DNA of 64,000 bases from Candidatus Latescibacterota bacterium (GCA_965261395.1 OZ253462.1:1920001-1984000); one strand, 5' to 3'; positions 49,744 to 64,000 are shown, counted from the stretch's first letter. Translations and numbers: made by a program. Notes: generated by a model from the sequence alone, not told the origin.

Positions 49744-50559
49744 ATGGTTCAGCGCATTCTGCTCTACGCGATCCTGTGCGCAGTCGGCGCGGTCTTGCTG
49801 GTTCCTTTCGCTTGGCTACTATCCACCGCGCTCAAAGCCGAGTCGGCCGATCTGTTCGCCCATCCTCCGCAGTGGATTCCCGACCCCATCGTCTGGGGCA
49901 ACTTCGCCAAGGCTTGGAACATCCTCCCGTTTGTGCGCTACCTCTTCAATACCTTCTACATTGCCATCGCCACGGTCCTGCTCAACTTGACGTGTTGTTC
50001 GCTGGCCGGCTACGCCCTCGCCCGCATGCACTTTCGCGGACGCCAAGCCATCTTCTACTGCATATTGGCCACGACCATGGTGCCGTTCCAAGTTCTCTTA
50101 ATCCCGCTCTTTATCGTCACCTTGAAGCTGGGTCTCGTGGATTCGTACGCCGGCGTCATTTTGCCAGTGGCGGTCAACGCCTTTGGCATCTTCCTCCTGC
50201 GCCAAGCCTTCACCACTATTCCCACCGATCTCGAAGATGCCGCGCGCATCGACGGCTGCGGCCCGTGGACCATCTATGCGCGCATTATGATGCCCTTGGT
50301 CAAACCAGCCCTCGCCGTGCAGGCGGCGTTTACGTTCGTAGCCCAGTGGAACGATTTTCTGTGGCCGCTGGTGGTGCTCAAAAGCCGCGAGCTGTACACC
50401 CTGCAATTGGGACTGGCCAGCCTCCAGGGCGTCTTTGGGGTCAACTGGCGCTACATTTCAGCGGCTTCGATCATCGCCTTGGTGCCGACGGTGCTGTTCT
50501 TTCTCTTCACCCAGCGATTTTTCACGCAGGGGCTGACGGCTGGTGCTGTGAAGGAATAG
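49744..50559 (+). CDS. Sugar ABC transporter permease
   Basis: IPTDLEDAARIDGC, WNDFLWP, GLTAGAVK. Confidence 0.92.
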   Translation: MVQRILLYAILCAVGAVLLVPFAWLLSTALKAESADLFAHPPQWIPDPIVWGNFAKAWNILPFVRYLFNTFYIAIATVLLNLTCCSLAGYALARMHFRGRQAIFYCILATTMVPFQVLLIPLFIVTLKLGLVDSYAGVILPVAVNAFGIFLLRQAFTTIPTDLEDAARIDGCGPWTIYARIMMPLVKPALAVQAAFTFVAQWNDFLWPLVVLKSRELYTLQLGLASLQGVFGVNWRYISAASIIALVPTVLFFLFTQRFFTQGLTAGAVKE

Positions 50560-50604
50560 CGGGGTCGTCATCTTCGGCATCTGAGTGAGGAGATAGCAAG
50601 GCGC

Positions 50605-53600
50605 ATGTCATCCGTTATGTTAGCCGATTTGCCCATGGACTTCGCTGCCGACCCGGATGCTGTCTCGGCCGTCGCCGAGGCGCATCGTCTCGCCTATGGA
50701 CACCTTTTTAATTCCGCGTTCGCCGCGGAAACGTCGCTAATTGACCCGCTCCCGCATCAGCGCATTGCCGTGTACGAGCAGATGCTGCAACAGGCTCCCC
50801 TGCGATTCTTGCTGGCCGACGACGCGGGGGCTGGCAAGACCATCATGACGGGCCTATACGTACGCGAGATGCTGTCCCGCCGTCTCATCCGTCGCGTGCT
50901 CATCGTGCCGCCGGCTGGCTTGGTCGGCAACTGGGAGCGGGAAATGCGCACCCTGTTTCGCCTGTCATTCCGCATCGTCAGCGGCGAAGACGCACGCACC
51001 GGCAATCCCTTCCTCGGCCCAGAGAGCGACCAAGTAATCGTCAGCATCGACACCTTGGCCGGGGAACGCATGTTTGGCCACCTCAAAGACTCGCAAACCG
51101 ACGCCTACGACCTCGTCGTCTTCGACGAGGCGCACAAGCTGTCTGCGGATCGTCTGCCGGATTTCCGGGTGCGCAAGACGGATCGGTACAAGCTGGCGGA
51201 AGCCCTAGCCGGTGCCGAGGTAGAAGATGAGCGCTGGGAGCTTCCTTGGTCGGTCCAACACCTGCTGTTGCTGACGGCCACGCCGCACATGGGCAAGGAT
51301 TATCCCTATTACTTCCTGTGGCGTCTGTTGCTGCCGGACGCGCTCTCGACCTACGACGCGTTCGACACTTTTCCCCGCGACTCTCGGCAGAGGCACTTCA
51401 TCCGCCGGACCAAGGAGGAGATGGTCCGCTTCGATGGTGCTCCGCTGTATCCACAGCGAAATTGCGCCACTCTGAGCTACGATCTCTCGCAGGGGCCAGA
51501 GAGCGAACAGGAGCTCTACGACGAGACGACCGAATACATCGGGTATTATTACAACCGCGCCGGAGTGTTGAACCAGTCCGCTGCCCGCTTGGCGATGAGC
51601 GTCTTTCAGCGGCGTCTCGCTAGTTCCACCTATGCCCTTCTACGCTCCTTTGAGCGTCGGCAAGAAAAGCTCGCAGGGCTGATTGACGACATTCGGAATG
51701 GACGACTTACCGAGGAACAGCTCGTGCGCCAGCAACGGAGCCTCGACAAGCTCGACGACATCTTTGAAACGCGGACCGCCGATGAGGACGCCGCAAGCGA
51801 GGACGGAGGCGAGCAACACGAGGAGTTCGAGGGCAAGGCTCTAAGCGGCACCGTTGCAGTCAACCTCAGCGAACTTGAGGTAGAACGTCGCCAAGTCGAA
51901 GCGTTGCTCAACAAGACTCGGAGCCTGTTCGACACCGGCGAGGAGTCCAAGTTCGAGAAGCTGCGCGAAGTGCTCCGCGACCCGCAATACCTCGACGAGA
52001 AGCTCATCATCTTCACCGAGCACCGCGACACTGCGGAGTTTTTGGTGCGCCGGCTCGAAGGGCTTGGCTTCACAGGTCAAGTTGCTCTGATCCACGGCGG
52101 CCTGCCCTACCAGGAGCGCGAGCGCCAAGTTGAGTTTTTTCGTCAATCAGCAGCGGAAGGCGGGGCCAACTACCTAGTGGCCACCGACGCTGCTGGCGAA
52201 GGGATTAACCTGCAATTCTGCTGGCTGATGGTGAACTACGACATCCCCTGGAACCCGGCGCGGCTCGAACAGCGGATGGGGCGCATCCATCGCTACGGCC
52301 AGAAACACGATCCAGTGGTCATCGTCAATCTGGTGGCCGGCGGTACGCGCGAGGGGCGGGTGCTGAAGACCCTGCTCGACAAGCTCGAAGCGATCCGTCG
52401 CCAGCTTCAATCCGATAAGGTGTTTGACGTGGTGGGTCGGCTGTTTGAGGGGTTGTCCATGCGGGACTATCTGGAGCAGGCGGTCACTGGAGATGCCGAC
52501 AGCATTGCCGAGCGCTTGGAGGGCGACCTTACAGAGCAACAAGTCCAAGCTCTTGCGGAGCGAGAGCGCGTACTCTTTGGAGAAGGCGGCGAGGTTCGCC
52601 GGCGACTGGCGCAGCTCAACGACGAGGCAGAGCAGGAAAACTATCGCCGCTTGCTGCCCGGATACGTGCGCCGTTTTGTGGAGCGAGCCGCGCCGCTGCT
52701 CGACTTGCGCATCGAGGGCGACTTAGGAGCCACTTTTGCGCTGGTGCCCGGCCGGCCCCGCGCGGCTGATGCCTTGTTGCCCGCACTTGAGGTCTATCCC
52801 GAGGAAGCGCGCGAGCGGCTGACGGTGTATAAGCCGACGGACCACGAAAGCGCGGTCTGGATGCACCCCGGCGAGCCGGTGTTCGACGCCCTCTCAGCCG
52901 CGATCCTGAGTCGCTTCGGGCGCGACGGGCTCAAGGGTGCCGTGTTCACCGACCCTTATGCGACCGAGGCATATCTATTTCATATCGCACTGATTTCTGT
53001 CGAACAGCACAGCCAAGGCAACGCAGGGCCGACCGCCCCGCAGCCCCTCGAATCGCGCCTAATCGGGCTGCGCCAATCGAGCAACGGCACCATAGAGGAG
53101 TGCCCGGTCGAGCATCTACTTCTGCTCAGAGGTGCCCACGGCTTCGCGCCAAGCCGGGTGCCACTGGCTACCCTAGCTCGCGACATGGTCGCTGATACTG
53201 CCCAGTTCATCCGCGAGGACGTGAACGAGCGCGTCGTGCAAGCGCATCGCCAGCGCCGCCTCGACGATCTGCCCGCACGCCTAAAGTTCGTCAATCGCGG
53301 CTTCGACTTTCAGGCTGCCGAACTCGCCGCCGCCCGATCCCGCCTTAGCAAAATGGCCCGCGATGGTAATCGCCACGCCCAAGGGGAACTCTCCAAGGTC
53401 AAGGAACGGCAGCGGAGCTTGACGGCTTCCCGCAATCATCGCCTCGACGATCTGCGGGCCGAACCAGACCTCATCCAGGCCGGTGAGATCGAGTTCCTCG
53501 TTCACGCCCTCGTGGTGCCGGCCCAAGATTCCGAGGAGACTGAGCGCTACGATGCCGATGTCGAAGCTATCGCTGTGGAGGTGGCTACCGATTATGAGAA

Positions 53601-53949
53601 GCGCTTCGGTGCCGAGGTACAGGATGTTTCGCGGCCCGAGCTAGCGCGGCGCGCCGGGCTAACCGACTGGCCAGGCTTTGATCTGCTTTCCCGCCACGCC
53701 GGAGAAGAACGACGCGCCATAGAAGTCAAGGGACGGGCCGGTACCGGCGGCATTGAAATGAGTGATAATGAATGGGCCAAGGCTTGCAATCTCCGCGACG
53801 AATACTGGCTCTACGTCGTCTTTGACTGCGCCACGCCTCACCCGCGTTTGGTGCGGGTGCGCGATCCATTTGCCAAGCTGCTCGTCAGGAGCCGCGAGTC
53901 TATCGCCTATATTATCAACCCAAGGGCTGTTATAGAGGCAGCCGAGTGA
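50605..53949 (+). CDS. SNF2-family helicase with C-terminal DUF3883 nuclease-like domain
   Basis: LLADDAGAGKT, DEAH, TATPH, TDAAGEGINLQ, EQRMGRIHR; GFDLLS...AIEVKG...NEW..A...YWLYVV. Confidence 0.93.
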   Translation: MSSVMLADLPMDFAADPDAVSAVAEAHRLAYGHLFNSAFAAETSLIDPLPHQRIAVYEQMLQQAPLRFLLADDAGAGKTIMTGLYVREMLSRRLIRRVLIVPPAGLVGNWEREMRTLFRLSFRIVSGEDARTGNPFLGPESDQVIVSIDTLAGERMFGHLKDSQTDAYDLVVFDEAHKLSADRLPDFRVRKTDRYKLAEALAGAEVEDERWELPWSVQHLLLLTATPHMGKDYPYYFLWRLLLPDALSTYDAFDTFPRDSRQRHFIRRTKEEMVRFDGAPLYPQRNCATLSYDLSQGPESEQELYDETTEYIGYYYNRAGVLNQSAARLAMSVFQRRLASSTYALLRSFERRQEKLAGLIDDIRNGRLTEEQLVRQQRSLDKLDDIFETRTADEDAASEDGGEQHEEFEGKALSGTVAVNLSELEVERRQVEALLNKTRSLFDTGEESKFEKLREVLRDPQYLDEKLIIFTEHRDTAEFLVRRLEGLGFTGQVALIHGGLPYQERERQVEFFRQSAAEGGANYLVATDAAGEGINLQFCWLMVNYDIPWNPARLEQRMGRIHRYGQKHDPVVIVNLVAGGTREGRVLKTLLDKLEAIRRQLQSDKVFDVVGRLFEGLSMRDYLEQAVTGDADSIAERLEGDLTEQQVQALAERERVLFGEGGEVRRRLAQLNDEAEQENYRRLLPGYVRRFVERAAPLLDLRIEGDLGATFALVPGRPRAADALLPALEVYPEEARERLTVYKPTDHESAVWMHPGEPVFDALSAAILSRFGRDGLKGAVFTDPYATEAYLFHIALISVEQHSQGNAGPTAPQPLESRLIGLRQSSNGTIEECPVEHLLLLRGAHGFAPSRVPLATLARDMVADTAQFIREDVNERVVQAHRQRRLDDLPARLKFVNRGFDFQAAELAAARSRLSKMARDGNRHAQGELSKVKERQRSLTASRNHRLDDLRAEPDLIQAGEIEFLVHALVVPAQDSEETERYDADVEAIAVEVATDYEKRFGAEVQDVSRPELARRAGLTDWPGFDLLSRHAGEERRAIEVKGRAGTGGIEMSDNEWAKACNLRDEYWLYVVFDCATPHPRLVRVRDPFAKLLVRSRESIAYIINPRAVIEAAE

Positions 53950-53955
53950 CGCAGA
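53894..53955 (+). repeat. Helicase 3' tail, copied at 59561-59622
   Basis: 53/62 identity by manual alignment; ESIAYIINPRAVIEAAE* vs ESIADTITPRAFIEAAE*. Confidence 0.9.
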
Positions 53956-54060
53956 CGCGATTGCATGAATCAAACCCATAGGGAAAATTCTGAGGTAAGC
54001 GGTCTTGGCGGCACAGGTTGGCCGACAGCCGGCAGGACCCTCACCAGCGAGGAGTCACCC

Positions 54061-55662
54061 ATGATGACGACAACCATGCGTTTCTTCAACACCGCCGGTC
54101 CCATCAAGGCGGAAATGCACTACCACATATCGCCTCTAGCGCGGCTCGACTGCGACGACTTCCTACAGCTCATCCGGCAGGAAAAGTACTTCGTCCTGCA
54201 CGCGCCGCGCCAGACCGGCAAGACCTCCGCGCTCCTAGCGCTGCGCGATGAACTGAACGCCAGCGGCGAGTTTCGCTGTGTGTACGTCAACGTCGAGGTC
54301 GGCCAGACGGCGCGGGAGGATGTGGCCGCGGCTATGCGGGCGATACTCAGCGCATTGGCTCGTGCGGCGCGCCACGCGCTCGATGACTTGTTTGTCACCG
54401 ACATTTGGCGCGGCATTCTCGACGACGCTGGCCCCAACGACGCGCTGGGGGAGACCCTTGCCTGCTGGGCGGCCGCGGATCCAAAGCCGCTGGTACTGAT
54501 GATCGACGAGGTTGACGCCCTGATCGGCGACACCCTGCTAGCCGTGCTGCGGCAATTGCGCGCTGGCCACCCAGAGCGCCCGCGCCGGTTTCCCCAGAGC
54601 GTGATTCTGTGCGGGGTGCGCGACGTGCGCGACTACCGCATCCGCTCTACCGCCGAAAACGCAATCATCGCCGGGGGCAGCGCGTTCAACATCCGCGCCG
54701 AGTCCCTGCGCCTCGGGGACTTCTCGCGCGCCGAGGTTGAGTCCCTGTTGGCGCAGCACACCGAGGAGACCGGCCAAGCGTTCACCGAGGAGGCACGACG
54801 CGACATCTGGGAGCTAACCCAAGGCCAACCGTGGCTCGTGAACGCCCTCGCCTACGAAGCCTGCTGGGGCAACAAGGCCGGGCGTGACCGCAGCCGGTCG
54901 ATCACCGCCGACGCCATCCAGGACGCCCGCGAGCAGTTGATCCTGCGCCGCGAGACGCATCTGGATCAGCTCACCGACAAGCTGCAAGAAGAGCGGGTGC
55001 GGCGGGTGGTCGAGCCGCTGCTGAAAGGAGCCGATGATGCCGGCTCGTTTGCTGCCGCCGATCTGCAGTACGTGCGCGATCTCGGACTCGTGCGTACCGA
55101 CGATCCCATTGCCATCGCCAACCCGATCTACCGCGAGGTGATCCCGCGCGACCTCACCTACACCACCCAAGCAGGCTTTCACCACGACCCGGCTTGGTAC
55201 GTCGATGCAGACGGCACCCTGCAGGTGGGCAAGCTCCTAGCCGCGTTCCAAGAGTTTTTCCGCGAGCATTCCGAGCACTGGATGGAGCGGTTCCAGTACA
55301 AGGAGGCGGGGCCGCAGTTGCTACTCCAAGCGTTTTTACAGCGCATCGTGAACAGCGGCGGCCGGATCGAGCGGGAGTATGGCTTGGGTCGGATGCGCAC
55401 AGACTTGCTGCTGATATGGCCAGTGGGCGGGGATCGCGGCAAGACGCAGAAGGTCGTCATTGAGTGCAAGGTGCTGCGTCGAGGGCTGGAGCGGACGCTG
55501 CGCGAAGGGCTGGAGCAGACGCGCGCCTACATGGATCGCTGCGCGACGGCGGAAGGACACCTCGTGCTCTTTGACCGCAGCGAGGGCAAGTCGTGGGACG
55601 ACAAGGTGTATCGCCGCGAGGAAACTGAAGGCGGCGCACCGGTCGAGGTGTGGGGAATGTGA
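54061..55662 (+). CDS. AAA-like ATPase with C-terminal PD-(D/E)XK-like domain
   Basis: MRFFNTAGP, HAPRQTGKT, LMIDEVD, EREYGLGRMRTDL...VIECK. Confidence 0.88.
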   Translation: MMTTTMRFFNTAGPIKAEMHYHISPLARLDCDDFLQLIRQEKYFVLHAPRQTGKTSALLALRDELNASGEFRCVYVNVEVGQTAREDVAAAMRAILSALARAARHALDDLFVTDIWRGILDDAGPNDALGETLACWAAADPKPLVLMIDEVDALIGDTLLAVLRQLRAGHPERPRRFPQSVILCGVRDVRDYRIRSTAENAIIAGGSAFNIRAESLRLGDFSRAEVESLLAQHTEETGQAFTEEARRDIWELTQGQPWLVNALAYEACWGNKAGRDRSRSITADAIQDAREQLILRRETHLDQLTDKLQEERVRRVVEPLLKGADDAGSFAAADLQYVRDLGLVRTDDPIAIANPIYREVIPRDLTYTTQAGFHHDPAWYVDADGTLQVGKLLAAFQEFFREHSEHWMERFQYKEAGPQLLLQAFLQRIVNSGGRIEREYGLGRMRTDLLLIWPVGGDRGKTQKVVIECKVLRRGLERTLREGLEQTRAYMDRCATAEGHLVLFDRSEGKSWDDKVYRREETEGGAPVEVWGM

Positions 55663-55666
55663 GCGG

Positions 55667-55870
55667 ATGACGGCTTCTAAAAGGATGGCTATCGCCCGCG
55701 TCCGGCAGAGGATAGTAGAGGGTGGGCACGATGTGCCGGAGCCTGTGGTTCGTCGTCGGTTTTTAGCGGGCTAGCGCAATTTTGAATCAATCTATCGAGA
55801 GCTTGTAGATGAGTGGGCTGTTTACGATAATTCGGGTAATTTGAAAATCTTGAGGATATGGCCATTCTAG
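55667..55870 (+). pseudogene. C-terminal remnant of a zeta-toxin-like P-loop kinase
   Basis: AIARVRQRIVEGGHDVPEPVVRRRF.AG*RNFE.IY..LVDEW.VYDNSG; P-loop half missing; in-frame TAG at 55772. Confidence 0.75.
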
Positions 55871-55883
55871 ACGGAGGAGCAAT

Positions 55884-56108
55884 ATGAAGACGATTGGAGT
55901 CGCAAAATTCAAGGAGCAGTGCTTGGCCTTGCTCGACCAGCTCGATGACGATGGGTTGGTCATCACCAAGCACGGTAAGCCAATAGCCCGAGTCGTCCCC
56001 TGCGATCAGCAAGACGCCGACCTGATCGGCAGCCTACGACACAAGATCAAAATCCGGGGTGACATCCTCACGACCGGCGTCCGCTGGGATGCAGATGCTC
56101 AATCTTGA
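55884..56108 (+). CDS. Phd/YefM family antitoxin
   Basis: FKEQCLALLD...VITKHGKPIARVVP; GGAG RBS. Confidence 0.9.
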   Translation: MKTIGVAKFKEQCLALLDQLDDDGLVITKHGKPIARVVPCDQQDADLIGSLRHKIKIRGDILTTGVRWDADAQS

Positions 56109-56196
56109 CACACATATTCTCATCTTCGCGAATGTTCCGTTGCTCACGCGAGACCAAATCATACGGCGTTCGCAGGTTGTTCCGCTAGCCTCGTAG
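56095..56196 (+). pseudogene. VapC/PIN toxin with large internal deletion
   Basis: 33 aa: PIN N-terminus MLNLDTHILIF joined to C-terminus VPLLTRD..IRRS.VVPL. Confidence 0.8.
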
Positions 56197-56244
56197 AGCA
56201 AATACCCTAGAAATGGTGAGACATAGGTGCTCAATGTCAAATCA

Positions 56245-56370
56245 CGTTGCTCGGGGTAACGGCGCTGGAGTCCCTCGGTATCGAAGTTGACCCGCTCAAC
56301 CAGCGACTGAAGAAGCTGCCGGCTGTGCGGCTCAAGAGCCTGCGGACGAGATCGAGAAAGGAGAAGCAGC
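56245..56370 (+). repeat. Clan AA protease 3' fragment (copy A)
   Basis: LLGVTALESLGIEVDPLNQRLKKLPAVRLKS; near-identical to blocks starting at 58291 and 59183, similar to 59901. Confidence 0.92.
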
Positions 56371-56625
56371 ATGGGAGTACGACAGCCGCGTTATAGCAAA
56401 GAGGAGTTCGCCCGGCGCGGTCAGGCGCTCTACGAGCAACGAGTGAGGCCGCAGGTGGAAGAAGGCAATAGCGGTAGGATCGTGGCGATTGATATTGAGA
56501 CGGGCGAGTTCGAGGTAGCGGACGACCCACTTGCCGCATCTGACCAACTTTTTGCGCGTTGTCCAGATGCGCAGCCGTGTTAGTGCGTATCGGGCACCGG
56601 GCGCTACATTGGTTCGGGCAGTCGC
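56371..56625 (+). pseudogene. Small protease-partner protein, frameshifted
   Basis: RGQALYEQRVRPQVE..GRIVAIDIETGEFEV; homology to the 58423 paralog resumes in another frame (LVRIGHRA) after ~56579. Confidence 0.7.
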
Positions 56626-56662
56626 ATGCTAGTGCACGATATAAGGCAATGGAGACGCCAAC

Positions 56663-57973
56663 ATGCTGAAGCGCATACATATCCGAGGATACAAGTCTCT
56701 TGAAGACGTCGAAGTGTGTCTTACCCAGCTTGTGGTTCTGTTCGGACCGAATGCCGCTGGTAAGAGCAATTTGCTCGATGCTTTGCAACTGCTGTCGAAG
56801 CTGGGGACGAGCCGGACGCTCAAAGAGGCTTTTGATCCACCCTATCGCGGCAAGCCACTCGAATCCTTTACCATCGGGCAAAAAGGCATCAAGGGGCTGC
56901 TCGAACAGGAGCGGCTGTCGTTCTCGATTGAAGCCGACCTGAGCTTGTCGGATGCGGTCGTTGAGACCGTCAATCGCCAGATACTAGAAATGCGTCGTCC
57001 GCACGGCGAGGGCGAGTCTAAAGAGAGAAGCAAGCTCCCCGCCCGTGTCCGCGAACGCGACTTGCGCTACCGCATCGAGGTGGAGATGCTGCCCAGATCG
57101 GGTCTCCTGCGCGTGGCGGACGAATACCTAGCCGCCCTCAACAGCAAGGGCGAGCCCACGGGTAAACGCAAGCCCTTTCTCGAACGGCAAGACGAAAGAA
57201 TCCACCTGCGGCACGAAGGACAGGCGCACCCCACCTGTTATGACCGTTATCTGGATCACAGCATCCTCTCTATGCCGCATTATCCGCCGCACTATCCCCA
57301 CTTGGCGGCGGCGCGGCGCGAACTGGAGAGCTGGCTGTTCTTCTACTTTGAGCCACGCGAACGCATGCGCGCCGCCAATCCAGTAAAAGAAGTGCGCCAT
57401 ATCGGCTTGATGGGTGAAGAACTCGCCGCCTTCCTCAACACCATGAAGTCAACCGATGAAAGACAGTTCAGGGGAGTCGAGAAGGCGTTACATGCGCTGA
57501 TGCCGAACATCGACGGCATTGAGGTGGAGGTGAGCGATCTCGGCGAGGTCGAGCTTCGCCTCAAGGAAGGCGGTGTTGCGATACCGGCCCGCGTACTCTC
57601 CGAAGGTACGCTGCGGATGCTCGGACTGCTAGCTTTGACCGGCGTTGACGACGCCCCGGCATTGGTCGGGTTCGAGGAACCAGAAAACGGCGTCCACCCG
57701 CGCCGCATCCAGTTGATCGCGGAATTGCTGAAAACACAGGAGACCCTGCAACAGACTCAGTACATCGTCACCACGCACTCGCCGATCCTGCCCGATCTGC
57801 TCGCGGACAGCTCCCTGTTTGTGACGAACCGGATCGACCGCAAGACACGAATTGAGCCGTTTTCTACTTGGGGACCATTGGGACGGCGCGATGATTTTAG
57901 CCAAGTGCTCTCCGACGAGGAGGACGGACTTCCAGTTTCAACACGTATCTTGAGAGGGGACTTCGATGCGTGA
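56663..57973 (+). CDS. AAA_21/AbiEii-type ABC ATPase
   Basis: GYKSL, GPNAAGKS, LSEGT, FEEPENGVHP, TTHS. Confidence 0.92.
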   Translation: MLKRIHIRGYKSLEDVEVCLTQLVVLFGPNAAGKSNLLDALQLLSKLGTSRTLKEAFDPPYRGKPLESFTIGQKGIKGLLEQERLSFSIEADLSLSDAVVETVNRQILEMRRPHGEGESKERSKLPARVRERDLRYRIEVEMLPRSGLLRVADEYLAALNSKGEPTGKRKPFLERQDERIHLRHEGQAHPTCYDRYLDHSILSMPHYPPHYPHLAAARRELESWLFFYFEPRERMRAANPVKEVRHIGLMGEELAAFLNTMKSTDERQFRGVEKALHALMPNIDGIEVEVSDLGEVELRLKEGGVAIPARVLSEGTLRMLGLLALTGVDDAPALVGFEEPENGVHPRRIQLIAELLKTQETLQQTQYIVTTHSPILPDLLADSSLFVTNRIDRKTRIEPFSTWGPLGRRDDFSQVLSDEEDGLPVSTRILRGDFDA

Positions 57974-58016
57974 TTCGCCGCTTGAGGCGGCGGAGCAAAC
58001 TGAAAGTGAAAGGAGA

Positions 58017-58487
58017 ATGAAAATGGGTGCAGTAAACGCCAACGTAGTCATCAGCAACCCAGCTAATCGAGCCAAAAGCTGGGAAGAGGTTTTTCTGGTT
58101 GATACAGGCGCGACCGACAGCCTCGTCCCGCGACAACACCTGGAGGCCATCGGCCTCAAACCCGAAGCACCGCGGACGTACCTATTGGCCGATGGCAGTG
58201 AAGTCCAGATGGACATTGCGGTTGCGCGAATCGAACTCATGGGGGAAATCGTGGGAGGCACGGTTCTTTTTGGAGACGCAGACACCGAGCCGTTGCTCGG
58301 GATAACGGCCCTGGAGTCCCTCGGTATAGAAATTGATCCGCTCAACCAGCGACTGAAAAAGCTGCCGGCTGTGCGGCTCAAGGATCTGCGGAGGAAAGCG
58401 AGATTGGAGAAAGGAGAACAGCATGGGCACAGATCGCACTTACGGCCCCGGGGAGATAGCAGCCCAGGGGGAAGCCATTTATCGTGA
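58017..58487 (+). CDS. Clan AA aspartic (retropepsin-like) protease, type 1
   Basis: FLVDTGATDS, LADG, EPLLGITALE; AAGGAG RBS. Confidence 0.88.
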   Translation: MKMGAVNANVVISNPANRAKSWEEVFLVDTGATDSLVPRQHLEAIGLKPEAPRTYLLADGSEVQMDIAVARIELMGEIVGGTVLFGDADTEPLLGITALESLGIEIDPLNQRLKKLPAVRLKDLRRKARLEKGEQHGHRSHLRPRGDSSPGGSHLS

Positions 58488-58701
58488 ACAGATCCAGTCT
58501 AAAGTTGAGCCAACGGAGAAAGGGAAATTCGTAGTCATTGATGTTGAGACCGGAGACTATGAGATCGACGCAGGGGACGCGGTGGCTACGCGGCGGCTTT
58601 TGGAGCGGAGGCCGTCGGCCGTTACATACGGAGTGCGCGTCGGCCATCGCGCAGCATACAGCCACGTCGGTGGCTTCCGGAATCCCAAGCACGATGATTA
58701 A
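58423..58701 (+). CDS. Small protease-partner protein
   Basis: GEAIYREQIQ.KVE..KGKFVVIDVETGDYEI...VRVGHRA; overlaps the downstream protease start. Confidence 0.8.
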   Translation: MGTDRTYGPGEIAAQGEAIYREQIQSKVEPTEKGKFVVIDVETGDYEIDAGDAVATRRLLERRPSAVTYGVRVGHRAAYSHVGGFRNPKHDD

Positions 58702-59074
58702 GGGAAAGATTAGCGAGAATCAACAGGCGTTGCTTCCTATAGACATTATAGACGGTGAAGGCCGCCCGAGGTCATTGGAGGTTATCCTAGACACCGGGTT
58801 TACTGGGTATTTGACACTGCCTCCGGAATCCATCCGTCAATTGGGACTGACCTCCATTGGTCAACGGACCTTTGAGCTAGCTAATGGGGAACTCTTTGAG
58901 TTTGCGGCCTACCTCGCCATGGTGTCCTGGCATGGACGCCTCCGTGATGTGCTGGTGCTGCAGTCGGACAGTGTTCCGTTGCTGGGCATGACTCTGCTCT
59001 GGGGTAGTCGAGTTACTGTGGATGCGTTGGACGACGGAGAGGTTATCATTGAAGAGCTTCCACCAGCCCAGTGA
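58694..59074 (+). CDS. Clan AA aspartic protease, type 2 (AF_0612-like)
   Basis: ILDTGFTGYLTLP, LANG, PLLGMTLL. Confidence 0.88.
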   Translation: MIKGKISENQQALLPIDIIDGEGRPRSLEVILDTGFTGYLTLPPESIRQLGLTSIGQRTFELANGELFEFAAYLAMVSWHGRLRDVLVLQSDSVPLLGMTLLWGSRVTVDALDDGEVIIEELPPAQ

Positions 59075-59110
59075 CGGGAAGTCGAAGGCCCATGCGCCGC
59101 GGGCGACGTT

Positions 59111-59298
59111 CGGTTGCGCGAATCGAACTCAGGGGGGAAATCGTGGGAGGCACGGTTCTTTTCGGGGACGCAGACACCGAGCCGTTGCTCGGGGTAACGG
59201 CTCGGGAGTCCCTCGGTATCGAAGTCGATCCACTCAACCAGCGACTGGAGAAGCTGCCGGCCGTGCGGCTCAAGAGCTTGCGGAGGAAAACGAGATAG
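59111..59298 (+). pseudogene. Type 1 protease C-terminal half lacking the DTG active site
   Basis: VARIELRGEIVGGTVLFGDADTEPLLGVTARESLG... Confidence 0.85.
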
Positions 59299-59349
59299 GA
59301 TCAAGGATAACAACATGGGCACAGATCGCACTTACGGCCCCAGGGAGAA

Positions 59350-59520
59350 ATGTCGAGCAAGACTACCGAGCAACGTGACACCATTATGAAGTATTCAGAC
59401 GCTTTCGCCCGTATAGACGAGGAAGAAGAGAGAGAGGAGATAGAAAGCGCTTACTCTGCACTAATTGAGGATGTCCGTCGAGAGGTCGAGAGTCTTGAGG
59501 CGAATGAGCCGAAGAGATAG
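59350..59520 (+). CDS. Small acidic hypothetical protein or remnant (56 aa)
   Basis: GGGAGA RBS; MSSKTTEQRDTIMKYSDAFARIDEEEEREEIESAYSALIEDVRREVESLEANEPKR. Confidence 0.4.
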   Translation: MSSKTTEQRDTIMKYSDAFARIDEEEEREEIESAYSALIEDVRREVESLEANEPKR

Positions 59521-59626
59521 GCGAACCCGCCTAACATTCGGGATCGAGTATGCGGATGTAGCGAGTCTATCGCCGACACCATCACCCCAAGAGCTTTTAT
59601 AGAAGCAGCCGAGTAACGCAGAGGAA

Positions 59627-59959
59627 ATGAAAATGGGAGTCCCGCACGTCATGGGCACCATTCGCAATCCCGTCGAACCGGACAGAACCTGGGAAGGGCT
59701 ATTTCTGGTCGATACGGGAGCGACCGATTGCCTAGTACCGCGACCCTGCCTGGAGGCTATAGGTCTCGTCCCCAAAGGGCAACGGGTGTACGAACTGGCA
59801 GACGGGCGCGAGATCAGGATGGACATCACGACCGCCGATATCGAGTTCATGGGGGAGATCGTCGGCGGAACGATTGTATTTGGCAAGGCGAATGCCGAAC
59901 CGCTACTCGGGGTGACGGTCCTGGAATCGGTGGGAATTGAAGTCGATCCGAGTAGCTAG
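59627..59959 (+). CDS. Clan AA aspartic protease, diverged type 1 allele with premature TAG
   Basis: FLVDTGATDC, LADG, EPLLGVTVLE; homology continues past the TAG as TLKRLPSVRLKS. Confidence 0.85.
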   Translation: MKMGVPHVMGTIRNPVEPDRTWEGLFLVDTGATDCLVPRPCLEAIGLVPKGQRVYELADGREIRMDITTADIEFMGEIVGGTIVFGKANAEPLLGVTVLESVGIEVDPSS

Positions 59960-60943
59960 ACCCTGAAAAGGCTTCCCTCAGTGCGCCTCAAGAGCCTGCG
60001 GGCGAGATCGAGATGGAGTACGACACGCTTACCGTCTCTGACCACAAAACCGAGTCTGACGACTCCAAGATAATCTGCTTAGAAAGTACGAGGGCTATGA
60101 CGGATAGAAATTGGGAGAATGAGTTCAGCCAGTGGGCAAGACCACCTGGCAAAACCGAGGATGAGCGTTGTGAGAATGCGATCAAAGCTATTCGCAATGC
60201 GATTGCCAAAAGCGACAAGTTGAAAAACCGGAGCCTTATGGTCTTCCCGCATGGCTCGTATCGTAACCGCGTCAATGTCCGACAAGACAGCGACGTCGAC
60301 GTGGGGGTTCTTTGCTACGAGTCTTTTTTTTATCACCTCCCCGAAGGGACCACCAACGAGACTTTTGGCTTTTCTGTCCCAGCAGAGTACGGCTACACTC
60401 AGTTTAAAAATGAACTTGTGGAAGCCTTGGCTGAGCACTTCGGATCTGGAGCGGTCCGTCGTGGGAACAAAGCCATCGACGTGCGAGAGAACACATATCA
60501 CGTGGAAGCTGATGTTGCGCCGTTCTTTGAATATCGGCACTACTCAGAAAACAGAAATTATCTATGCGGAGTGGCCTTAAGTCCTGACAACGGCGAGATG
60601 ATCTACAATTACCCCGAGCGAATACTCGATAGCTGGCCGCATATACCACTGCACTACGAGAATGGGGTCTCCAAAAACAAAACAACCCATCGTTCCTACA
60701 AGGGAGTCGTGCGTATTCTTAAGAAAATACGCAACGAAATGGACGATGCTTTCATTGCTGCGGCTAAGCCGATTCCAGGATTTCTGATCGAGTGCATGGC
60801 TTGGAACGCACCGACCGCGTGTTTCAAAGGAGATACGTGGGACGGCAAAGTACAAGCTGTGCTTCTACACCTTTGGTCGAGCACCAAAGACGACGCGAGT
60901 TGTAAGGACTGGAAGGAGGTCAACGACATCAAGTTTCTCTTTA

Positions 60944-61875
60944 GAAGCCGTCTGAAAACCCTTGCTGTAGCCGGTATTTGAATCGGCGTACTCATCGAGC
61001 CATATTCAGGTTTCGCGACAAAATCTGAACAGAAAGGCTCGTATGATGAGTACGCCTAGTAGGCAATATGCCACCGATGTAACCGATGTGCAATGGCGTC
61101 GGATCGAACCGTTGCTGCCGGCTTCGACATGGCAGCCGAACGGTCCGGGTCGGCCACCGCGGGATCGACGCCAGATCGTCAACGGCCTTTTGTATCTGAC
61201 CAAGACCGGTTGTCCTTGGGCTTTGTTGCCTTCTTGTTTTGGACCGTGGAAAACGGTGTATGATTACTTTCGTCGCTGGAGTCTACAAGGGGTCTGGCCG
61301 CAGGTATTGGATCGACTCACCCAGCGGGAACGCCGCCTCAACGGACGGGCTCCAACGCCGTCGGCTGGCGTAGTCGATAGTCAGACGATCAAGACGGCAA
61401 CCCATGGTAAAACAACCGGTTATGACGCCGGAAAAAAGGTCAAGGGGCGCAAGCGTCATCTGTTGGTCGACACCTCGGGCTTGCTTAGACAGGTGGTGGT
61501 CACCGCCGCCGATGTAGAGGATCGGGACGGCCTCAAGCAGGTGTTGACCCGCTTGGGGGCCTCCGGCGTAGCCCGGTTACGCAAACTGTGGGGCGATGGC
61601 GGCTATCGAGGCGATCCGATCCGAACGTGGGTGGCTAACGTAAAAAAGACGCACAAAATAGACTTGGAAGTCGTCGCCAAACAAGGCCCCGGCTTTGAGG
61701 TGTTACCACGCCGTTGGGTCGTCGAGCGCACGTTTGCGTGGTTGATGAATTTTCGCCGACATGCCCGAGATTATGAGGTGTTGACCCACCATAGCGAAGC
61801 CTTGATCCAGATTGCTATGATCCACTTGCTGCTCAAACGGATCAAATAGAAAAAATATAGTTTTCAGACGGCTTC
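60944..61875 (+). mobile_element. IS5 family (IS1031-like) insertion sequence, 932 bp
   Basis: Perfect 16-bp IRs GAAGCCGTCTGAAAAC / GTTTTCAGACGGCTTC; TTA target duplication at 60941-60943 and 61876-61878. Confidence 0.95.
61043..61849 (+). CDS. IS5 family transposase
   Basis: TGCPWALLP, VVDSQTIK, GYDAGKKVKGRKRHLLVD, DGGY, RWVVERTFAW. Confidence 0.96.
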   Translation: MMSTPSRQYATDVTDVQWRRIEPLLPASTWQPNGPGRPPRDRRQIVNGLLYLTKTGCPWALLPSCFGPWKTVYDYFRRWSLQGVWPQVLDRLTQRERRLNGRAPTPSAGVVDSQTIKTATHGKTTGYDAGKKVKGRKRHLLVDTSGLLRQVVVTAADVEDRDGLKQVLTRLGASGVARLRKLWGDGGYRGDPIRTWVANVKKTHKIDLEVVAKQGPGFEVLPRRWVVERTFAWLMNFRRHARDYEVLTHHSEALIQIAMIHLLLKRIK

Positions 61876-61958
61876 TTAACTCAGCTCAACCGTGGAAGCG
61901 GTACGAGGCTCATGCTTTCATTGAAGCCGCGTGGAGCTATATCCAAGTAAGATAAAGA

Positions 61959-62603
61959 ATGAAAATCGAGCGCACCCATATCACTGTTTTCGTAGCTATA
62001 GCTGCGCTTGTGTGGTGGGGCACTTTGTTATGGCAGGATACGCCAGTTGCTTGGGAACACGGAAAGCCCTTCACTGTGGTCGTAAGTGTTCTTGGAGTGT
62101 TTGGGCTTGTCTTTGATCATTTTTTGTGGCGTTGCCGGTTGTTTCACGGATGGTTGGTTAAACGGCCAGATCTCCGCGGGACTTGGCGCGTCGAACTCCA
62201 GTCAAGCTATATCAATCCGGAGACCGGAGAGCGTGTGCCTATGATTGTCTGCTACATGGGGGTCAAGCAGACGCTATCGGAACTCAAGATGCACTTGATG
62301 ACACCAGAATCTGAATCCTGGTCTATCGCGAGCCACATTAGGCCCTCTCCAAGCGGAAACGGCTATCAGGTGATCTGTGTCTACAAAAACAAGCCTAACA
62401 TCCATCTTCGCGACGAACGAATTAGTGAGATACATAACGGAGCTCTCATCATCGATACTCATGGTTCTGGTGTTCGGCCCGATACCTTCACGGCAGAATA
62501 CTGGACCGACCGCAAGACGGTGGGGAGCATGAAATTTGAAAGTCGTATCAGCCAAGTTTTCACGCACTTTGAAGACGCGGATCAGCACTTCGAGCAAAAC
62601 TAA
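61959..62603 (+). CDS. CBASS Cap15-like 2TM beta-barrel effector
   Basis: Two N-terminal TM helices, PDLRGTW, VKQTL, TPESESWS, Y.NKP, HNGA, YWTDRKT.G; directly after the CD-NTase. Confidence 0.88.
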   Translation: MKIERTHITVFVAIAALVWWGTLLWQDTPVAWEHGKPFTVVVSVLGVFGLVFDHFLWRCRLFHGWLVKRPDLRGTWRVELQSSYINPETGERVPMIVCYMGVKQTLSELKMHLMTPESESWSIASHIRPSPSGNGYQVICVYKNKPNIHLRDERISEIHNGALIIDTHGSGVRPDTFTAEYWTDRKTVGSMKFESRISQVFTHFEDADQHFEQN

Positions 62604-62658
62604 CCGAGCAGTCTGATGCCATATGTGTTCACACAACCATGATGAAACCGACTAAAAC

Positions 62659-64000
62659 ATGACCGACAAACGCCTCATCGAAGTCGCCTTCCCCCTGAAG
62701 CAGGTCTCCCTCGACTCTGTCCACGAGAAGAATGTGCGTCACGGCCACATCTCCACGCTGCACATCTGGCCGGCGCGGCGACCGCTAGCCGCGGCGCGGG
62801 CGGCGCTGATTGCGACGTTGCTTGCCGATCCCGGCGATCCCAAGCAACGGCAGGAGATTCTGGATCGCATGGCGGGTCGCGTCGTCGAGAAAATTGAGCG
62901 CAAGCGGGTGAATGGGCGGGTGGTCGAGAAGGTGAAGGAGGAAACGGTCGGCGGCATTCTTCATTGGGGGCGCGAGAATGATCCCGATCTTGCGTGGTTC
63001 CGCGCAGAGATTCGCAAGGCGTACGGCGGGCGGGCACCCAAGGTGCTGGACCCGTTTGCCGGTGGCGGTGCCATTCCGCTCGAAGCCATGCGCCTCGGCT
63101 GCGACGTGACCGCCATGGACATCAACCCGGTGGCTTGGTTCATCCTCAAGTGTACCCTCGAATACCCGCAGAAGCTCGCTGGTCAGACCCGCCCGCTGCC
63201 CGAATTCGCGCTGGAGGACGGCGAATTCATGGAGGCGTTTCTGAAGGCGAAGGGGTTTAAGGGTGCCAGCTTGCGGACCTTCTTGGAGCGGCTCGGCCAC
63301 GGCGATGGCGGTGAAATCCAGCTCGATCTCTTGCAACAGGACGATCCCATACTGGAGGCGGATCTCGCTTGGCACGTGCGCGCTTGGGGCCGGTGGGTGC
63401 TGGCCAAGGCGCGCACGGAGTTGGCTGCGCACTATCCGACTTATGCTGAGTTCGAGCCGCTGAAGGCGGATGAGGAGTATGAGCCGCGTCCGATGCGACT
63501 CTTAGAGATTGATGATGCGGGAATTCCGCAGGTCGATCTGCTCAACGCCGAGTTCGACGCCGCCTATCTCAAGGACCCGCGCAACCCGCGCTGGATCGCC
63601 AAGCCGACGGTGGCCTATCTCTGGGCGCGGACTGTAACCTGCAAACAGTGCCGCGCCACCCTGCCGCTGCTCAAGACGCGCTGGTTGTGCAAGAAGGATC
63701 GCAAGCGCGTGCTGCTGACGATGGAGCCGAAGGCCGACCAGACTGGCGTTGTCTTCGGCGTGCAGAGCGACGTGCCGCACAACGGCGGCAACGCGGCGCA
63801 GCGGCGGGAGCACGACAAGCGCATCGGAGCGGGCACTATGTCGCGCACCGGCGCAACCTGCCCGTGCTGTGGCGCGATCACGACCATGGCGGATATCCGT
63901 TTTGAAGGCCGCGCTGGGCGGTTGGGCGCGGCGATGACGGCTGTGGTAGTGGATGGGCCGAAAGGCAAGGGTAAGGAATACCGCTTGCCGATGGACCACG
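62659..64000 (+). CDS. DUF1156 adenine DNA methyltransferase with Zn ribbon (runs off window)
   Basis: MTDKRLIEVAFP...HISTLHIWPARRPLAAARA, VLDPFAGGGAIPLEA, DINPVA, YLWARTVTCKQC; open to the window end. Confidence 0.93.
   Translation, partial: MTDKRLIEVAFPLKQVSLDSVHEKNVRHGHISTLHIWPARRPLAAARAALIATLLADPGDPKQRQEILDRMAGRVVEKIERKRVNGRVVEKVKEETVGGILHWGRENDPDLAWFRAEIRKAYGGRAPKVLDPFAGGGAIPLEAMRLGCDVTAMDINPVAWFILKCTLEYPQKLAGQTRPLPEFALEDGEFMEAFLKAKGFKGASLRTFLERLGHGDGGEIQLDLLQQDDPILEADLAWHVRAWGRWVLAKARTELAAHYPTYAEFEPLKADEEYEPRPMRLLEIDDAGIPQVDLLNAEFDAAYLKDPRNPRWIAKPTVAYLWARTVTCKQCRATLPLLKTRWLCKKDRKRVLLTMEPKADQTGVVFGVQSDVPHNGGNAAQRREHDKRIGAGTMSRTGATCPCCGAITTMADIRFEGRAGRLGAAMTAVVVDGPKGKGKEYRLPMDH

Follow-up and report, generated by a model that had tools for sequence, protein, structure and literature searches.

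How defence genes come to be stacked at one chromosomal site that carries no dedicated recombinase is the question raised by the window analysed here, a stretch of 64,000 nucleotides from a Candidatus Latescibacterota bacterium. About 8.7 kb of cargo, all on the + strand, lies between a helicase gene and a DUF1156 methyltransferase gene, an arrangement noted in a preliminary description of the locus and recovered by both ORF and profile searches. The helicase, a SNF2/DEAD protein with NOV_C (DUF3883) at its C-terminus (50605..53949, + strand; Pfam Helicase_C, NOV_C and SNF2-rel_dom), and the adenine methylase (62659..64000, + strand, continuing beyond the window; Pfam DUF1156) are identified by their profile matches as HmaA (PADLOC E 3.9e-167, profile positions 64-1151 of 1176) and HmaB (PADLOC E 7.5e-48 on the 447 aa within the window; 1073 aa at full length in the genome) of the three-gene anti-phage system Hma (helicase-methylase-ATPase). 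HmaC (PADLOC E 5e-76, Pfam DUF499; L016:4503-7790) is encoded just beyond the window, on the same strand and 2.6 kb downstream of hmaB, and the core of the system looks intact in this genome as judged from its genes. HmaA is conserved, with 83-94% amino acid identity in 10 of 30 genomes of the genus. On this annotation the region corresponds to the variable slot for cargo that hmaA and hmaB enclose, with CBASS, HEC-01A and antitoxin genes embedded in the + orientation; a second slot, between hmaB and hmaC, harbors PDC-M07A.

Hma-embedded defence genes, and thus the hotspot itself, are already known from the work of Payne et al. 2024 (10.1101/2024.01.29.577857), who report that 931 of 1485 Hma systems contain embedded genes and count 376 distinct cassettes. 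Those systems share with the present locus the helicase-methylase-ATPase core and the co-oriented nested defence genes, and the ABC ATPase of the window matches their candidate HEC-01A. Because their search admitted no more than three embedded genes in each gap, a stack of the length seen here falls outside it. In the portions of that article available to us no mechanism is given, the word "recombination" does not occur, and the discussion turns on the idea of a "genomic sink".

In order to gain insight into the variability of the slot, 18 other Hma loci (L018-L025, L031, L040, L043, L076-L079 and L087-L089) were compared by inspection of their gene maps. The cargo set of the window occurs in none of the 18, and no two of the 19 loci, window included, are alike in cargo, which comprises short pAgo, TIR-APAZ, NsnA/B, OLD-like, HEC-01, PDC-S19, PDC-S32 and CBASS genes in the related loci. 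The upstream ABC-transporter flank is 90-92% identical in L018, L020, L021, L022, L024, L040 and L043; variable cargo at what the alignments place as one and the same chromosomal site identifies the slot as a defence hotspot, as had been proposed. An intact protease gene directly follows hmaA in L076, L077, L078 and L088, and in L025 one small ORF intervenes. Stubs of the core genes recur within the cargo, in the form of hmaA tails (window, L031, L089), hmaB heads (L020, L023, L076, L079) and hmaB tails (L088, L089); the mirror-image hmaB stubs of the relatives lay outside the view of the preliminary description.

The four protease 3' blocks previously noticed at 56245, 58291, 59183 and 59901 were recovered by a repeat search as a 121-nt direct-repeat family (100, 88, 88 and 71% identity, respectively, to the reference copy), together with a 238-nt pair (58219-58456 and 59111-59348; 90% identity, 892 nt apart). 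Self-blastn of positions 50000-64000 returned the same pairs at E 1e-14 to 2e-89, which excludes chance. The blocks belong to clan-AA proteases, and the hmaA tail is found a second time among them. Each block is followed by different cargo, as had been stated.

Copy A (56245..56365, + strand) is a protease tail truncated at its 5' side at about aa 93, with the break inside a short palindrome, and matches the intact L040 protease gene at its 3' end with 94% nucleotide identity, against 87% to its neighbour B. Behind it follow partner A (56371..56583, + strand; 70 aa, 91 aa in relatives by tblastn and ORFs) and the ABC ATPase; an extra G after position 56578, present in a contig of all four sequencing runs, would restore the long form of the partner. 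Copy B is an intact aspartic protease gene (58023..58487, + strand; DTGA motif, NCBIfam TIGR03698 E 4.6e-22, Pfam gag-asp_proteas) whose ORF reads into partner B (58423..58701, + strand; 92 aa). The latter is without a known family in the Pfam and NCBIfam searches, and its structural model (pLDDT 76) has no PDB fold match at E<=0.001. Next comes a second, type 2 clan-AA protease (58694..59074, + strand; DTGF motif, TIGR03698 E 9e-13). Copy C (59111..59348, + strand) is truncated at about aa 69 and ends in a partner-B stub of 34 nt, not 27 bp as first reported, behind which stands an orphan ORF (59350..59520, + strand; 56 aa) with no Pfam, NCBIfam or PADLOC match and, across the 28 loci L018-L045, none by tblastn or blastn. 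Copy D (59633..60012, + strand; TIGR03698 E 3.6e-22) is a pseudogene, interrupted in frame by a TAG at 59957-59959 that the earlier account lacks, its tail reading to about 60012. A partner-A-like stub of about 16 nt (60013..60030, + strand), recognised by setting it beside the copy A-partner A junction, and some 70 nt separate it from CBASS; a 14-nt deletion has cost this stub its ribosome-binding site and the first base of its ATG. Alignment bears out that copies A and D share the same ending. PADLOC has no model for either the protease or the partner genes.

The second hmaA tail (59561..59622, + strand) is a 62-nt repeat, 85% identical to the resident tail (53894..53955, + strand; E 5e-14, repeat search and blastn). 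Behind it stands the CGCAGA spacer also seen after the resident tail, and the order of stop, CGCAGA, leader and protease is preserved at copy D; the second tail carries an allele signature common to L031, L040 and L087-L089, unlike the resident tail. A helicase-like tail had been proposed in front of both full-length proteases. The proposal holds at D, whereas before B there is a degenerate remnant with the protease 5' leader (57974..58016, + strand) that blastn does not detect, that is recognisable over about 20-45 nt only against the real hmaA-protease junctions and leaders of L076 and L077-L079, respectively, and that constitutes weak evidence. Both genes do begin with ATGAAAATGGG, as described, although comparison with relatives makes the second ATG the likelier start.

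A further trace lies behind the resident hmaA stop codon, where a mid-protease fragment of about 43 nt (53956..53998, + strand) aligns with protease B at 58219-58256. Its equivalent in L040 is 95% identical to that locus's own protease over 39 nt, in L022 the fragment continues into a protease tail and partner A, and it persists as well in L077 and L078, both members of another family. These alignments mark the fragment as the scar of an older hmaA-protease junction.

The remaining cargo looks, from its gene content, mostly decayed or incomplete, in agreement with the suggestion that older cargo is decaying. Nearest to hmaA is an AAA-type ATPase (53965..55662, + strand; 565 aa, Pfam AAA_22 and AAA_35) with a likely start near 54061, 98% amino acid identity to L018 and four paralogous stretches elsewhere in the genome, one of them (84%) directly after hmaC. 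It is followed by a zeta-toxin-like remnant (55716..55838, + strand; 89-93% nucleotide identity to L021, L031 and L024); in L021 and L031 the matching stretch lies within zeta-toxin ORFs, and about 345 nt of the gene are absent from the window. Then come a Phd/YefM-type antitoxin (55884..56108, + strand; Pfam PhdYeFM_antitox E 8e-8, NCBIfam phd_fam) and a 35-aa, toxin-like stub (56089..56196, + strand), recognised in translation and without a Pfam match, which presumably resembles the N-terminus of a PIN/VapC toxin. The HEC-01A ABC ATPase (56663..57973, + strand; PADLOC HEC-01A E 2e-54) stands without HEC-01B, the TOPRIM-like DUF4276 gene that comes after it in L020, L023, L040, L075 and L076, and its homology to L020, L023, L024 and L040 ends at its stop codon. 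The type I, 2TM CBASS operon is not intact either. Its CD-NTase (60097..60981, + strand; PADLOC Cyclase E 8e-109, profile positions 3-275 of 295; 87% nucleotide identity to L019) has its 3' end replaced by an IS5-family element (60940..61878, + strand), which separates it from the Cap15 (2TM) effector (61959..62603, + strand; Pfam Cap15_CD_rec E 4e-15, PADLOC 2TM effector E 1.3e-60). The element, a further addition to the earlier account, encodes a DDE transposase (61043-61849; Pfam DDE_Tnp_1 and DUF4096), has an inverted repeat and a 3-bp TTA target duplication, and occurs in nine further genome copies at >=99.8% identity; its empty site is seen in L019, and the IS-free joint 60940>61876 in runs X15, X16 and X19.

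Phylogenetic analysis of the proteases places copies B and C in one clade (support 100/99) and copy D in another (97/96), with L025 and L075-L078. Both clades include members from other genomes and families and, as they are old, the copies of the window are not local duplicates; modules of different lineages are stacked here, as had been supposed. All partial protease copies in the Hma loci have lost their 5' side and kept their 3' end, none being 3'-truncated, a polarity that rests on only about five break points (about aa 44, 68-69, 86 in L022, 93 and 130) in related loci that are not independent. Behind each copy stands a partner gene or a stub of it (16, 30, 34 or 66 nt). Exchange between copies has also left marks: in L018 the second tail is mosaic, changing from a C-like stretch to one of another type and from there to an A-like one, with the first of these switches at the palindrome where tail A breaks, and the B copy of the same locus bears C-specific changes. 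Block B, partner B, protease 2 and tail C recur at 92-96% in L018 and L031, which are independent assemblies, and part of the stack has therefore been inherited.

Observation establishes the anatomy of the slot, its variability between orthologous loci, the scars, the mosaics and the mixed descent of the protease copies. Taken together, these footprints probably reflect sequential displacement, in which recombination is homologous at one side and illegitimate at the other, and to which gene conversion, deletion and a single IS insertion have contributed; this route, with its direction and order, we infer from the scars. Several structural arrangements of the locus stand side by side in the sequencing runs, in keeping with this route. 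The ancestral layout in this lineage would have placed a small clan-AA protease gene immediately behind hmaA, with a partner gene of about 91 aa after it. New cargo would arrive as DNA from related Hma loci, one end of which would pair by homology with the left core gene hmaA or the right core gene hmaB, and the other would be joined illegitimately slightly into the resident DNA (homology-facilitated illegitimate recombination). Each event would shift the resident layer inward and leave as its scar a core-gene stub, or a 5'-truncated protease still accompanied by its partner gene or stub; homologous exchange and gene conversion between protease-partner copies, deletions and the IS insertion would later remodel the stack. 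Recombination through coding anchors, as first proposed, is borne out in so far as junctions and mosaic switches are located in the tails of protease and hmaA and in the head of the partner gene, but most junctions are gene-truncating illegitimate joins and not reciprocal exchanges at a defined site. Counts of break points in repeated blocks are partly circular, and junctions just outside hmaA and hmaB are also expected from selection for an intact Hma, whatever the mechanism. None of the loci compared qualifies as a near-identical donor, with 87-96% identity for the closest alleles. The footprints suggest a clue to how defence genes are stacked without a dedicated recombinase, and thereby address the gap in mechanism left by the available portions of Payne et al. 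2024 (10.1101/2024.01.29.577857).

Other histories could leave a similar pattern. A chimeric assembly of several strains, named beforehand as the case that would undo the account, might be suspected from the metagenome-type assembly with its 8% estimated contamination, from a likely 1-nt error or variant at 56578 and from the variant structures that the runs contain for this locus (joints 53994>55839, 53951>62665 and 56579>62658, plus the IS-free allele). Yet at the contig level, at which the runs were examined, a single X15 contig of 4243 nt covers 57529-60940 and 61876-62700 with 0 differences, and 57529-60668 is covered by overlapping X16 and X19 contigs, which come from a different study. 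The junctions of B, C and D are thus spanned unchanged in two studies and the repeated block occurs in the independent assemblies L018 and L031. The repeats are real, and that a chimera explains them is scarcely credible. Little more can be said for a site-specific, integron-like system whose recombinase has escaped recognition and targets the protease tail at a site such as the short palindrome, which we hold to be very improbable. Two independent junctions do fall at that palindrome, namely the mosaic switch of L018 and the 5' end at which tail A is broken off, and the protease family recurs in Hma, in type I RM and beside Zorya II. Against this, no integrase or recombinase domain was found in the 35 ORFs of 53.6-62.7 kb (20 plus-strand and 15 further, 13 of the latter minus-strand), nor, among genes scanned as far as 16 kb downstream, a tyrosine-recombinase integrase (IntI); the only mobility gene of the slot is the IS transposase, so that the earlier remark on a missing integrase stands. 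The repeat search, run without an attC model, recovered neither a recurring inverted-repeat family at the junctions nor conserved cassette-end repeats, the palindrome of 6 bp inside the protease tail being the only one found, and the region has no Rfam match. Protease break points are moreover scattered, and genes are truncated on both sides of the junctions.

A purely local history, with tandem duplication and divergence of the protease-partner module and unrelated indels but no DNA from other Hma loci, accounts for the closeness of B and C, for the conversion visible in L018 and for the block common to the window, L018 and L031. We nevertheless regard it as unlikely: the D and B clades split before families f1, f3 and f4 diverged, tail A is nearer to the L040 gene than to its own neighbours, the second hmaA tail bears the signature of other loci, and cargo types differ so widely among orthologous loci that gains are needed besides losses. 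Somewhat less probable still is that the protease tails and partner heads are selected leaders (ribosome-binding or regulatory) for the cargo downstream, that is, adaptors and not scars. The stretch up to the partner start is retained in every copy, four cargo junctions lie in the first 16-66 nt of the partner gene and the cargo is all co-oriented, as this explanation would have it; but at copy D the ribosome-binding site and the first base of the start codon are deleted, a scan of the slot found no promoter-like site, the tails contain stops and frameshifts, and the same pattern is seen in core-gene stubs, which could hardly serve as leaders.

For the displacement route, the closest parallel is in the orphan immunity arrays of the Vibrio cholerae T6SS, the C-terminal displacement of Rhs and the orphan modules of CDI, for which the available text of Kirchberger et al. 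2017 (PMC5361080) proposes homology-facilitated illegitimate recombination. There, too, a conserved upstream gene serves as homology anchor (here hmaA, with stubs inside the cargo), an incoming two-gene module displaces the resident one, of which the downstream partner survives and the first gene disappears or is truncated, the very configuration of the partial proteases and their partners. Their arrays are likewise heterogeneous, with members closest to the alleles of other strains, as are the window proteases in the tree and tail A in its affinity to L040 (94%, against 87% to copy B). By analogy, the stack may have formed in the same way. It differs in lying inside an anti-phage operon, in layers that include whole defence systems besides the small gene pair, in scars at both ends of the slot, and in a gene pair, protease and partner, that is not known to be a toxin-immunity pair. 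Integrons resemble the slot more loosely, in their co-oriented variable cassettes stacked at one site with older ones farther from the entry; here there is no integrase, attC-like repeat or promoter-like site to be found, the junctions are irregular and truncate genes, and the integron reading was rejected except as a loose analogy.

Single defence genes embedded in restriction-like operons, such as PrrC in EcoprrI and BrxU in BREX, are discussed in the available parts of Payne et al. 2024 (10.1101/2024.01.29.577857) and likewise add a second defence function, possibly as back-up; they are functionally linked to the host system, whereas the present stack is multi-layered and largely decayed. 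Of 29 related loci, 20 have a member of the slot's protease family between hsdM and hsdS, and the family adjoins Zorya II as well. In the type I RM locus L086, an hsdM-tail stub of 239 nt (93%) lies directly behind the protease.

The genome analysed is a single contig of 6.55 Mb (G000:C1), of which the window covers positions 1920001-1984000 and in which the cargo described here is bounded by a helicase gene, hmaA (50605-53949, + strand; PADLOC HmaA, E 3.9e-167), and a DUF1156 methylase gene, hmaB (+ strand, starting at 62659; PADLOC HmaB, E 7.5e-48), followed 2.6 kb downstream of hmaB by a DUF499 ATPase gene, hmaC (PADLOC HmaC, E 5e-76). The "RM-like operon" of the preliminary description is therefore retained as an operon, with its identity corrected to the helicase-methylase-ATPase (Hma) anti-phage system. 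All real genes of the 8.7-kb hmaA-hmaB gap (the cargo slot) lie on the + strand. They comprise, in order, an AAA-type ATPase of 565 aa (53965-55662); the remains (123 nt) of a zeta-toxin-like gene; a gene for a Phd antitoxin, accompanied by a toxin-like stub of 35 aa; protease tail A (56245) with partner A, one of the small genes that follow protease copies; HEC-01A, an ABC ATPase whose DUF4276 partner is missing; clan-AA protease B, which is intact (tail at 58291), together with partner B and another protease of clan AA (protease 2); protease tail C (59183) with a 34-nt partner stub and an orphan ORF of 56 aa; the hmaA tail in a second copy; protease D (tail at 59901), which carries an in-frame stop and has a partner stub of about 16 nt behind it; and a CBASS pair (CD-NTase, Cap15) with an IS5-family element in between. 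The insertion sequence within the CBASS pair (60940-61878) corrects the earlier account and has nine other copies of at least 99.8% identity in the genome, plus about ten at 87%. In a related locus (L019) the CBASS pair is the only cargo between hmaA and hmaB and shows the empty site of the element. No promoter-like site was predicted between 53800 and 62700, and terminator-like sites are rarer there than in shuffled sequences, an outcome that is uninformative.

Several features surrounding this arrangement were also recorded. The 565-aa ATPase has no PADLOC model match; a copy with 84% identity lies directly 3' of hmaC (L016:7696-9414), three further paralogous stretches (70-74%) occur in the genome, and locus L088 has two tandem copies of the gene behind hmaC. 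The hmaB-hmaC gap, just past the window, is occupied as well (L016:1819-4490); its genes encode a PIN-like protein, an ABC ATPase that matches PDC-M07A (E 1.7e-67) and a protein of 190 aa. Elsewhere in the genome there are three more full-length HmaA-like helicase genes (35-36% amino acid identity) and one apparently split (G000:C1:494521, 3226174-3229094, 3899638 and 5671268), with no protease match near any of them. Partner A is 70 aa long in the window and 91 aa in eight relatives; in each of the four sequencing runs compared, a contig carries an additional G after 56578, with which the long form would be regained, and this 1-nt difference is due to an assembly error or represents a variant.

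The repeat structure reported in the preliminary description is confirmed. The four-copy, 121-nt protease 3' block and the 62-nt hmaA-tail pair were both recovered by repeat search and by self-blastn (E 1e-14 to 2e-89 over repeat pairs), as was a 238-nt pair formed by copies B and C, and the alignment shows the common ending of A and D as well as the ATGAAAATGGG starts of the proteases. The helicase-like tail claimed ahead of copy B is present as a remnant, but a short and degenerate one, recognisable by comparison with the genuine hmaA-protease junctions of four other loci (L076-L079). The partner stub behind copy C, at 34 nt, differs in length from that first reported.

The junctions between these modules retain scars of earlier arrangements. 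The roughly 43 nt 3' of the resident hmaA stop are a fragment from the middle of the protease gene. In locus L022 this fragment runs on into a protease tail and partner A, and in two loci of another family (L077, L078) it is kept ahead of an intact protease. Intact proteases directly follow hmaA in L076, L077, L078 and L088, and in L025 with one small ORF between, while copy D presents the layout hmaA tail, stop, CGCAGA, leader, protease. Taken together, the fragment, the intact junctions and the layout of copy D indicate that the ancestral order was hmaA, protease, partner. Partial protease copies in Hma loci all lack the 5' end and all keep the 3' end, the reverse never being found, with break points at about aa 44, 68-69, 86 (L022), 93 and 130. 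Tail C and the fragment behind hmaA begin at the identical position, suggesting that tail C once formed the first layer and was then displaced inward. Behind each protease copy there is a partner gene or a stub of it (16, 30, 34 or 66 nt), and then unrelated cargo.

Stubs of the core genes themselves sit within the cargo at many loci. Tails of hmaA occur within the cargo of the window, L031 and L089; in mirror image, heads of hmaB precede embedded genes in L020, L023, L076 and L079, and tails of hmaB lie in the hmaB-hmaC gap ahead of hmaC in L088 and L089. The same core-gene-stub scar is present in a type I RM locus (L086), where the 3' part of hsdM is copied (239 nt, 93%; L086:5541-5779 and 6300-6534) directly behind the protease and before hsdS. 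Exchange between copies has also left traces in L018, whose second tail is a mosaic that starts C-like (72 columns), passes into another type and ends A-like, and whose B copy has changes otherwise specific to copy C of the window. The first switch in this mosaic coincides with a short palindrome at which tail A of the window breaks.

The protease tree (35 rows) resolves three well-supported clades: one linked to hsdM-hsdS (20 rows, support 98/96), a B-type clade that includes copies B and C (7 rows, 100/99), and a D-type clade that includes copy D (8 rows, 97/96). Other genera and families are represented in both Hma-linked clades. Tail A matches the intact gene of locus L040 at 94% identity but its neighbour B at 87%; between the two hmaA tails identity is 85%, and the second one carries an allele signature common to L031, L040 and L087-L089; and the G+C content of the modules ranges from 0.49 to 0.65. 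The stack therefore consists of alleles of different descent, and not of recent local duplicates.

A search with the HmaA C-terminus yielded 28 loci, and of 30 other genomes in the genus 10 have an hmaA ortholog. In seven close relatives the upstream ABC-transporter flank is shared at 90-92% identity, so that these loci represent the same chromosomal site. Nineteen Hma loci, including the window (the others being L018-L025, L031, L040, L043, L076-L079 and L087-L089), were compared by mapping the window genes onto them and scanning the remaining ORFs, the outcome being judged by inspection of the maps and not by a formal all-against-all comparison. By this inspection the cargo set of the window occurs in none of the 18 other loci and no two of the 19 are alike. 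Cargo elsewhere includes short pAgo with TIR-APAZ, NsnA/B, OLD-like ATPase-nucleases, HEC-01A/B, PDC-S19, PDC-S32, zeta toxin, CBASS and several large proteins without family.

A chimeric assembly of several strains, which the preliminary description had named as a possible source of the repeats, was evaluated on contigs only: six public sequencing runs contained at least half of the sampled words, and four runs were compared with the locus. One contig of run X15 (4243 nt) covers 57529-60940 and 61876-62700 with zero differences, which places copies B, C and D and all junctions between them on one piece. Overlapping contigs of runs X16 and X19, from another study, tile 57529-60668, and the block protease B-partner B-protease 2-tail C recurs with 92-96% identity in the independent assemblies of L018 and L031. 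These data argue against a chimera over this part of the slot, while places without a bridging contig, such as the 56245 junction, provide evidence neither for nor against it. The X15, X16 and X19 runs also contain an IS-free allele (joint 60940>61876, 3-nt overlap). Further contig joints, 53994>55839 (with 40 other letters), 53951>62665 and 56579>62658, have short sides of 23-59 letters and suggest that structural variants of the slot co-exist. Among these variants one is devoid of the AAA ATPase and others have different or less cargo. No back-joining joints, as expected of a circle or tandem, occur among the run contigs, which cannot show rare forms.

As to how the stack was built, the integron analogy of the preliminary description failed those integron tests that could be run. 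As in that description, no integrase was seen; the 35 ORFs of the region yielded no integrase-type domain, and Rfam (E≤0.1) and tRNA scans of the region gave no match. The remainder of that interpretation, namely a defence hotspot with stacking, decay of older cargo and recombination through coding anchors, is borne out, so that overall it is partly supported. Each layer would have entered by homology within a conserved gene on one side and by an irregular join on the other, truncating the resident first gene or leaving a core-gene stub, such that layers would pile up in a single orientation. One-sided homology, an irregular truncating join and co-oriented layers are the product expected of homology-facilitated illegitimate recombination. 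Homologous exchange among protease-partner copies, deletions and IS insertion would afterwards reshape the stack; deletion is exemplified by the part missing from within the zeta gene, by the missing HEC-01B and by L018, where window positions 55761 and 58142 are joined. All of these steps are inferred. None of the events was observed, and no donor of near-identical sequence came to light. Surviving junctions would lie just outside the core genes through selection for an intact Hma system alone, and a count of breakpoints inside versus outside the repeated blocks would be circular, the blocks themselves being defined by homology. The core-gene stubs, the 5'-truncated copies of the first embedded gene and the mosaic copies point to ordinary one-sided homologous recombination as the route. 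This is also the route put forward for the T6SS orphan immunity arrays of Vibrio cholerae, in a report that cites it for Rhs and CDI orphan modules as well (PMC5361080). Among the papers listed by a literature search on this route and defence systems, none contained the phrase "homology-facilitated illegitimate recombination".

The hotspot itself is already known. Embedded defence genes have been reported in 931 of 1485 Hma systems, in 376 distinct cassettes, HEC-01 being one of them, and in 434 embedded families, which may include a protease family, from a search that allowed at most three genes per gap (Payne et al. 2024, bioRxiv 10.1101/2024.01.29.577857). That study leaves the origin of embedding open, and the word "recombination" is absent from its text. 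What is new here is that the mechanism can be read from scars. Nesting in Hma, BREX, DISARM and type I RM systems is now exploited for finding new immune genes, and this locus and its relatives constitute a readable record of how nesting arises. If the route holds generally, the order of acquisition events and the limits of cassettes could be worked out from core-gene stubs in any embedded system.

The most interesting loose end is the steady presence of the protease at the first junction of restriction-like operons. The protease, a TIGR03698 match (clan AA, DTG motif) without PADLOC model match, belongs to a family found in 76 of 168 genomes of the phylum, mostly in multiple copies. Among the best 29 protease loci outside the window's genome, 20 have the gene between an HTH-fused hsdM (~610 aa) and hsdS (L052-L065, L067-L070, L072 and L073; also L081-L083, L085 and L086), six are Hma loci, and in one each the protease lies ahead of hsdR, behind the 565-aa ATPase and adjoining HEC-01, or next to Zorya II. 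No hsdR was found within the 12-kb stretches at five of the hsdM-protease-hsdS loci. Members of the partner family were found in 65 of 168 genomes from the phylum; the partner has no Pfam, NCBIfam or PADLOC family and no PDB sequence match below E 0.1; its Atlas neighbours are unnamed clusters of ~90 aa, and its AlphaFold model (pLDDT 76) has no Foldseek match in PDB at E≤0.001. A literature search for retropepsins in phage defence found no paper, and among the papers listed by one on anti-phage and restriction-modification systems none mentioned a retropepsin-like protease. It is conceivable, if doubtful, that the clan AA protease gene, often with its small partner, is a portable fixture of the phylum's restriction-like defence operons (behind hmaA, in hsdM-hsdS, near Zorya II), whose coding sequence, with the core-gene ends, would offer a recombinase-free homology handle for capturing, stacking and moving whole defence systems between kinds of locus, and which may also act on its host system, for instance by proteolytic control. 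Apart from this reading, its recurrence in such operons offers a lead to an accessory function that has yet to be described.

The protease is also present at a second variable site, beside a Peptidase_S9 gene, in all four genomes looked at (L075, L081, L082, L084), where its neighbours differ: in one they are an AAA ATPase, partner A and HEC-01A/B, in another Zorya II, and in the remaining two hsdM-hsdS. Two more protease-tail remnants (~73% nucleotide identity) lie in the window's genome at a distance from every Hma locus (G000:C1:773552-773663 and 778369-778477, in stretch L017). They occupy the opposite strand at the 3' ends of two secreted-protein genes of 1300 aa that stand in tandem.
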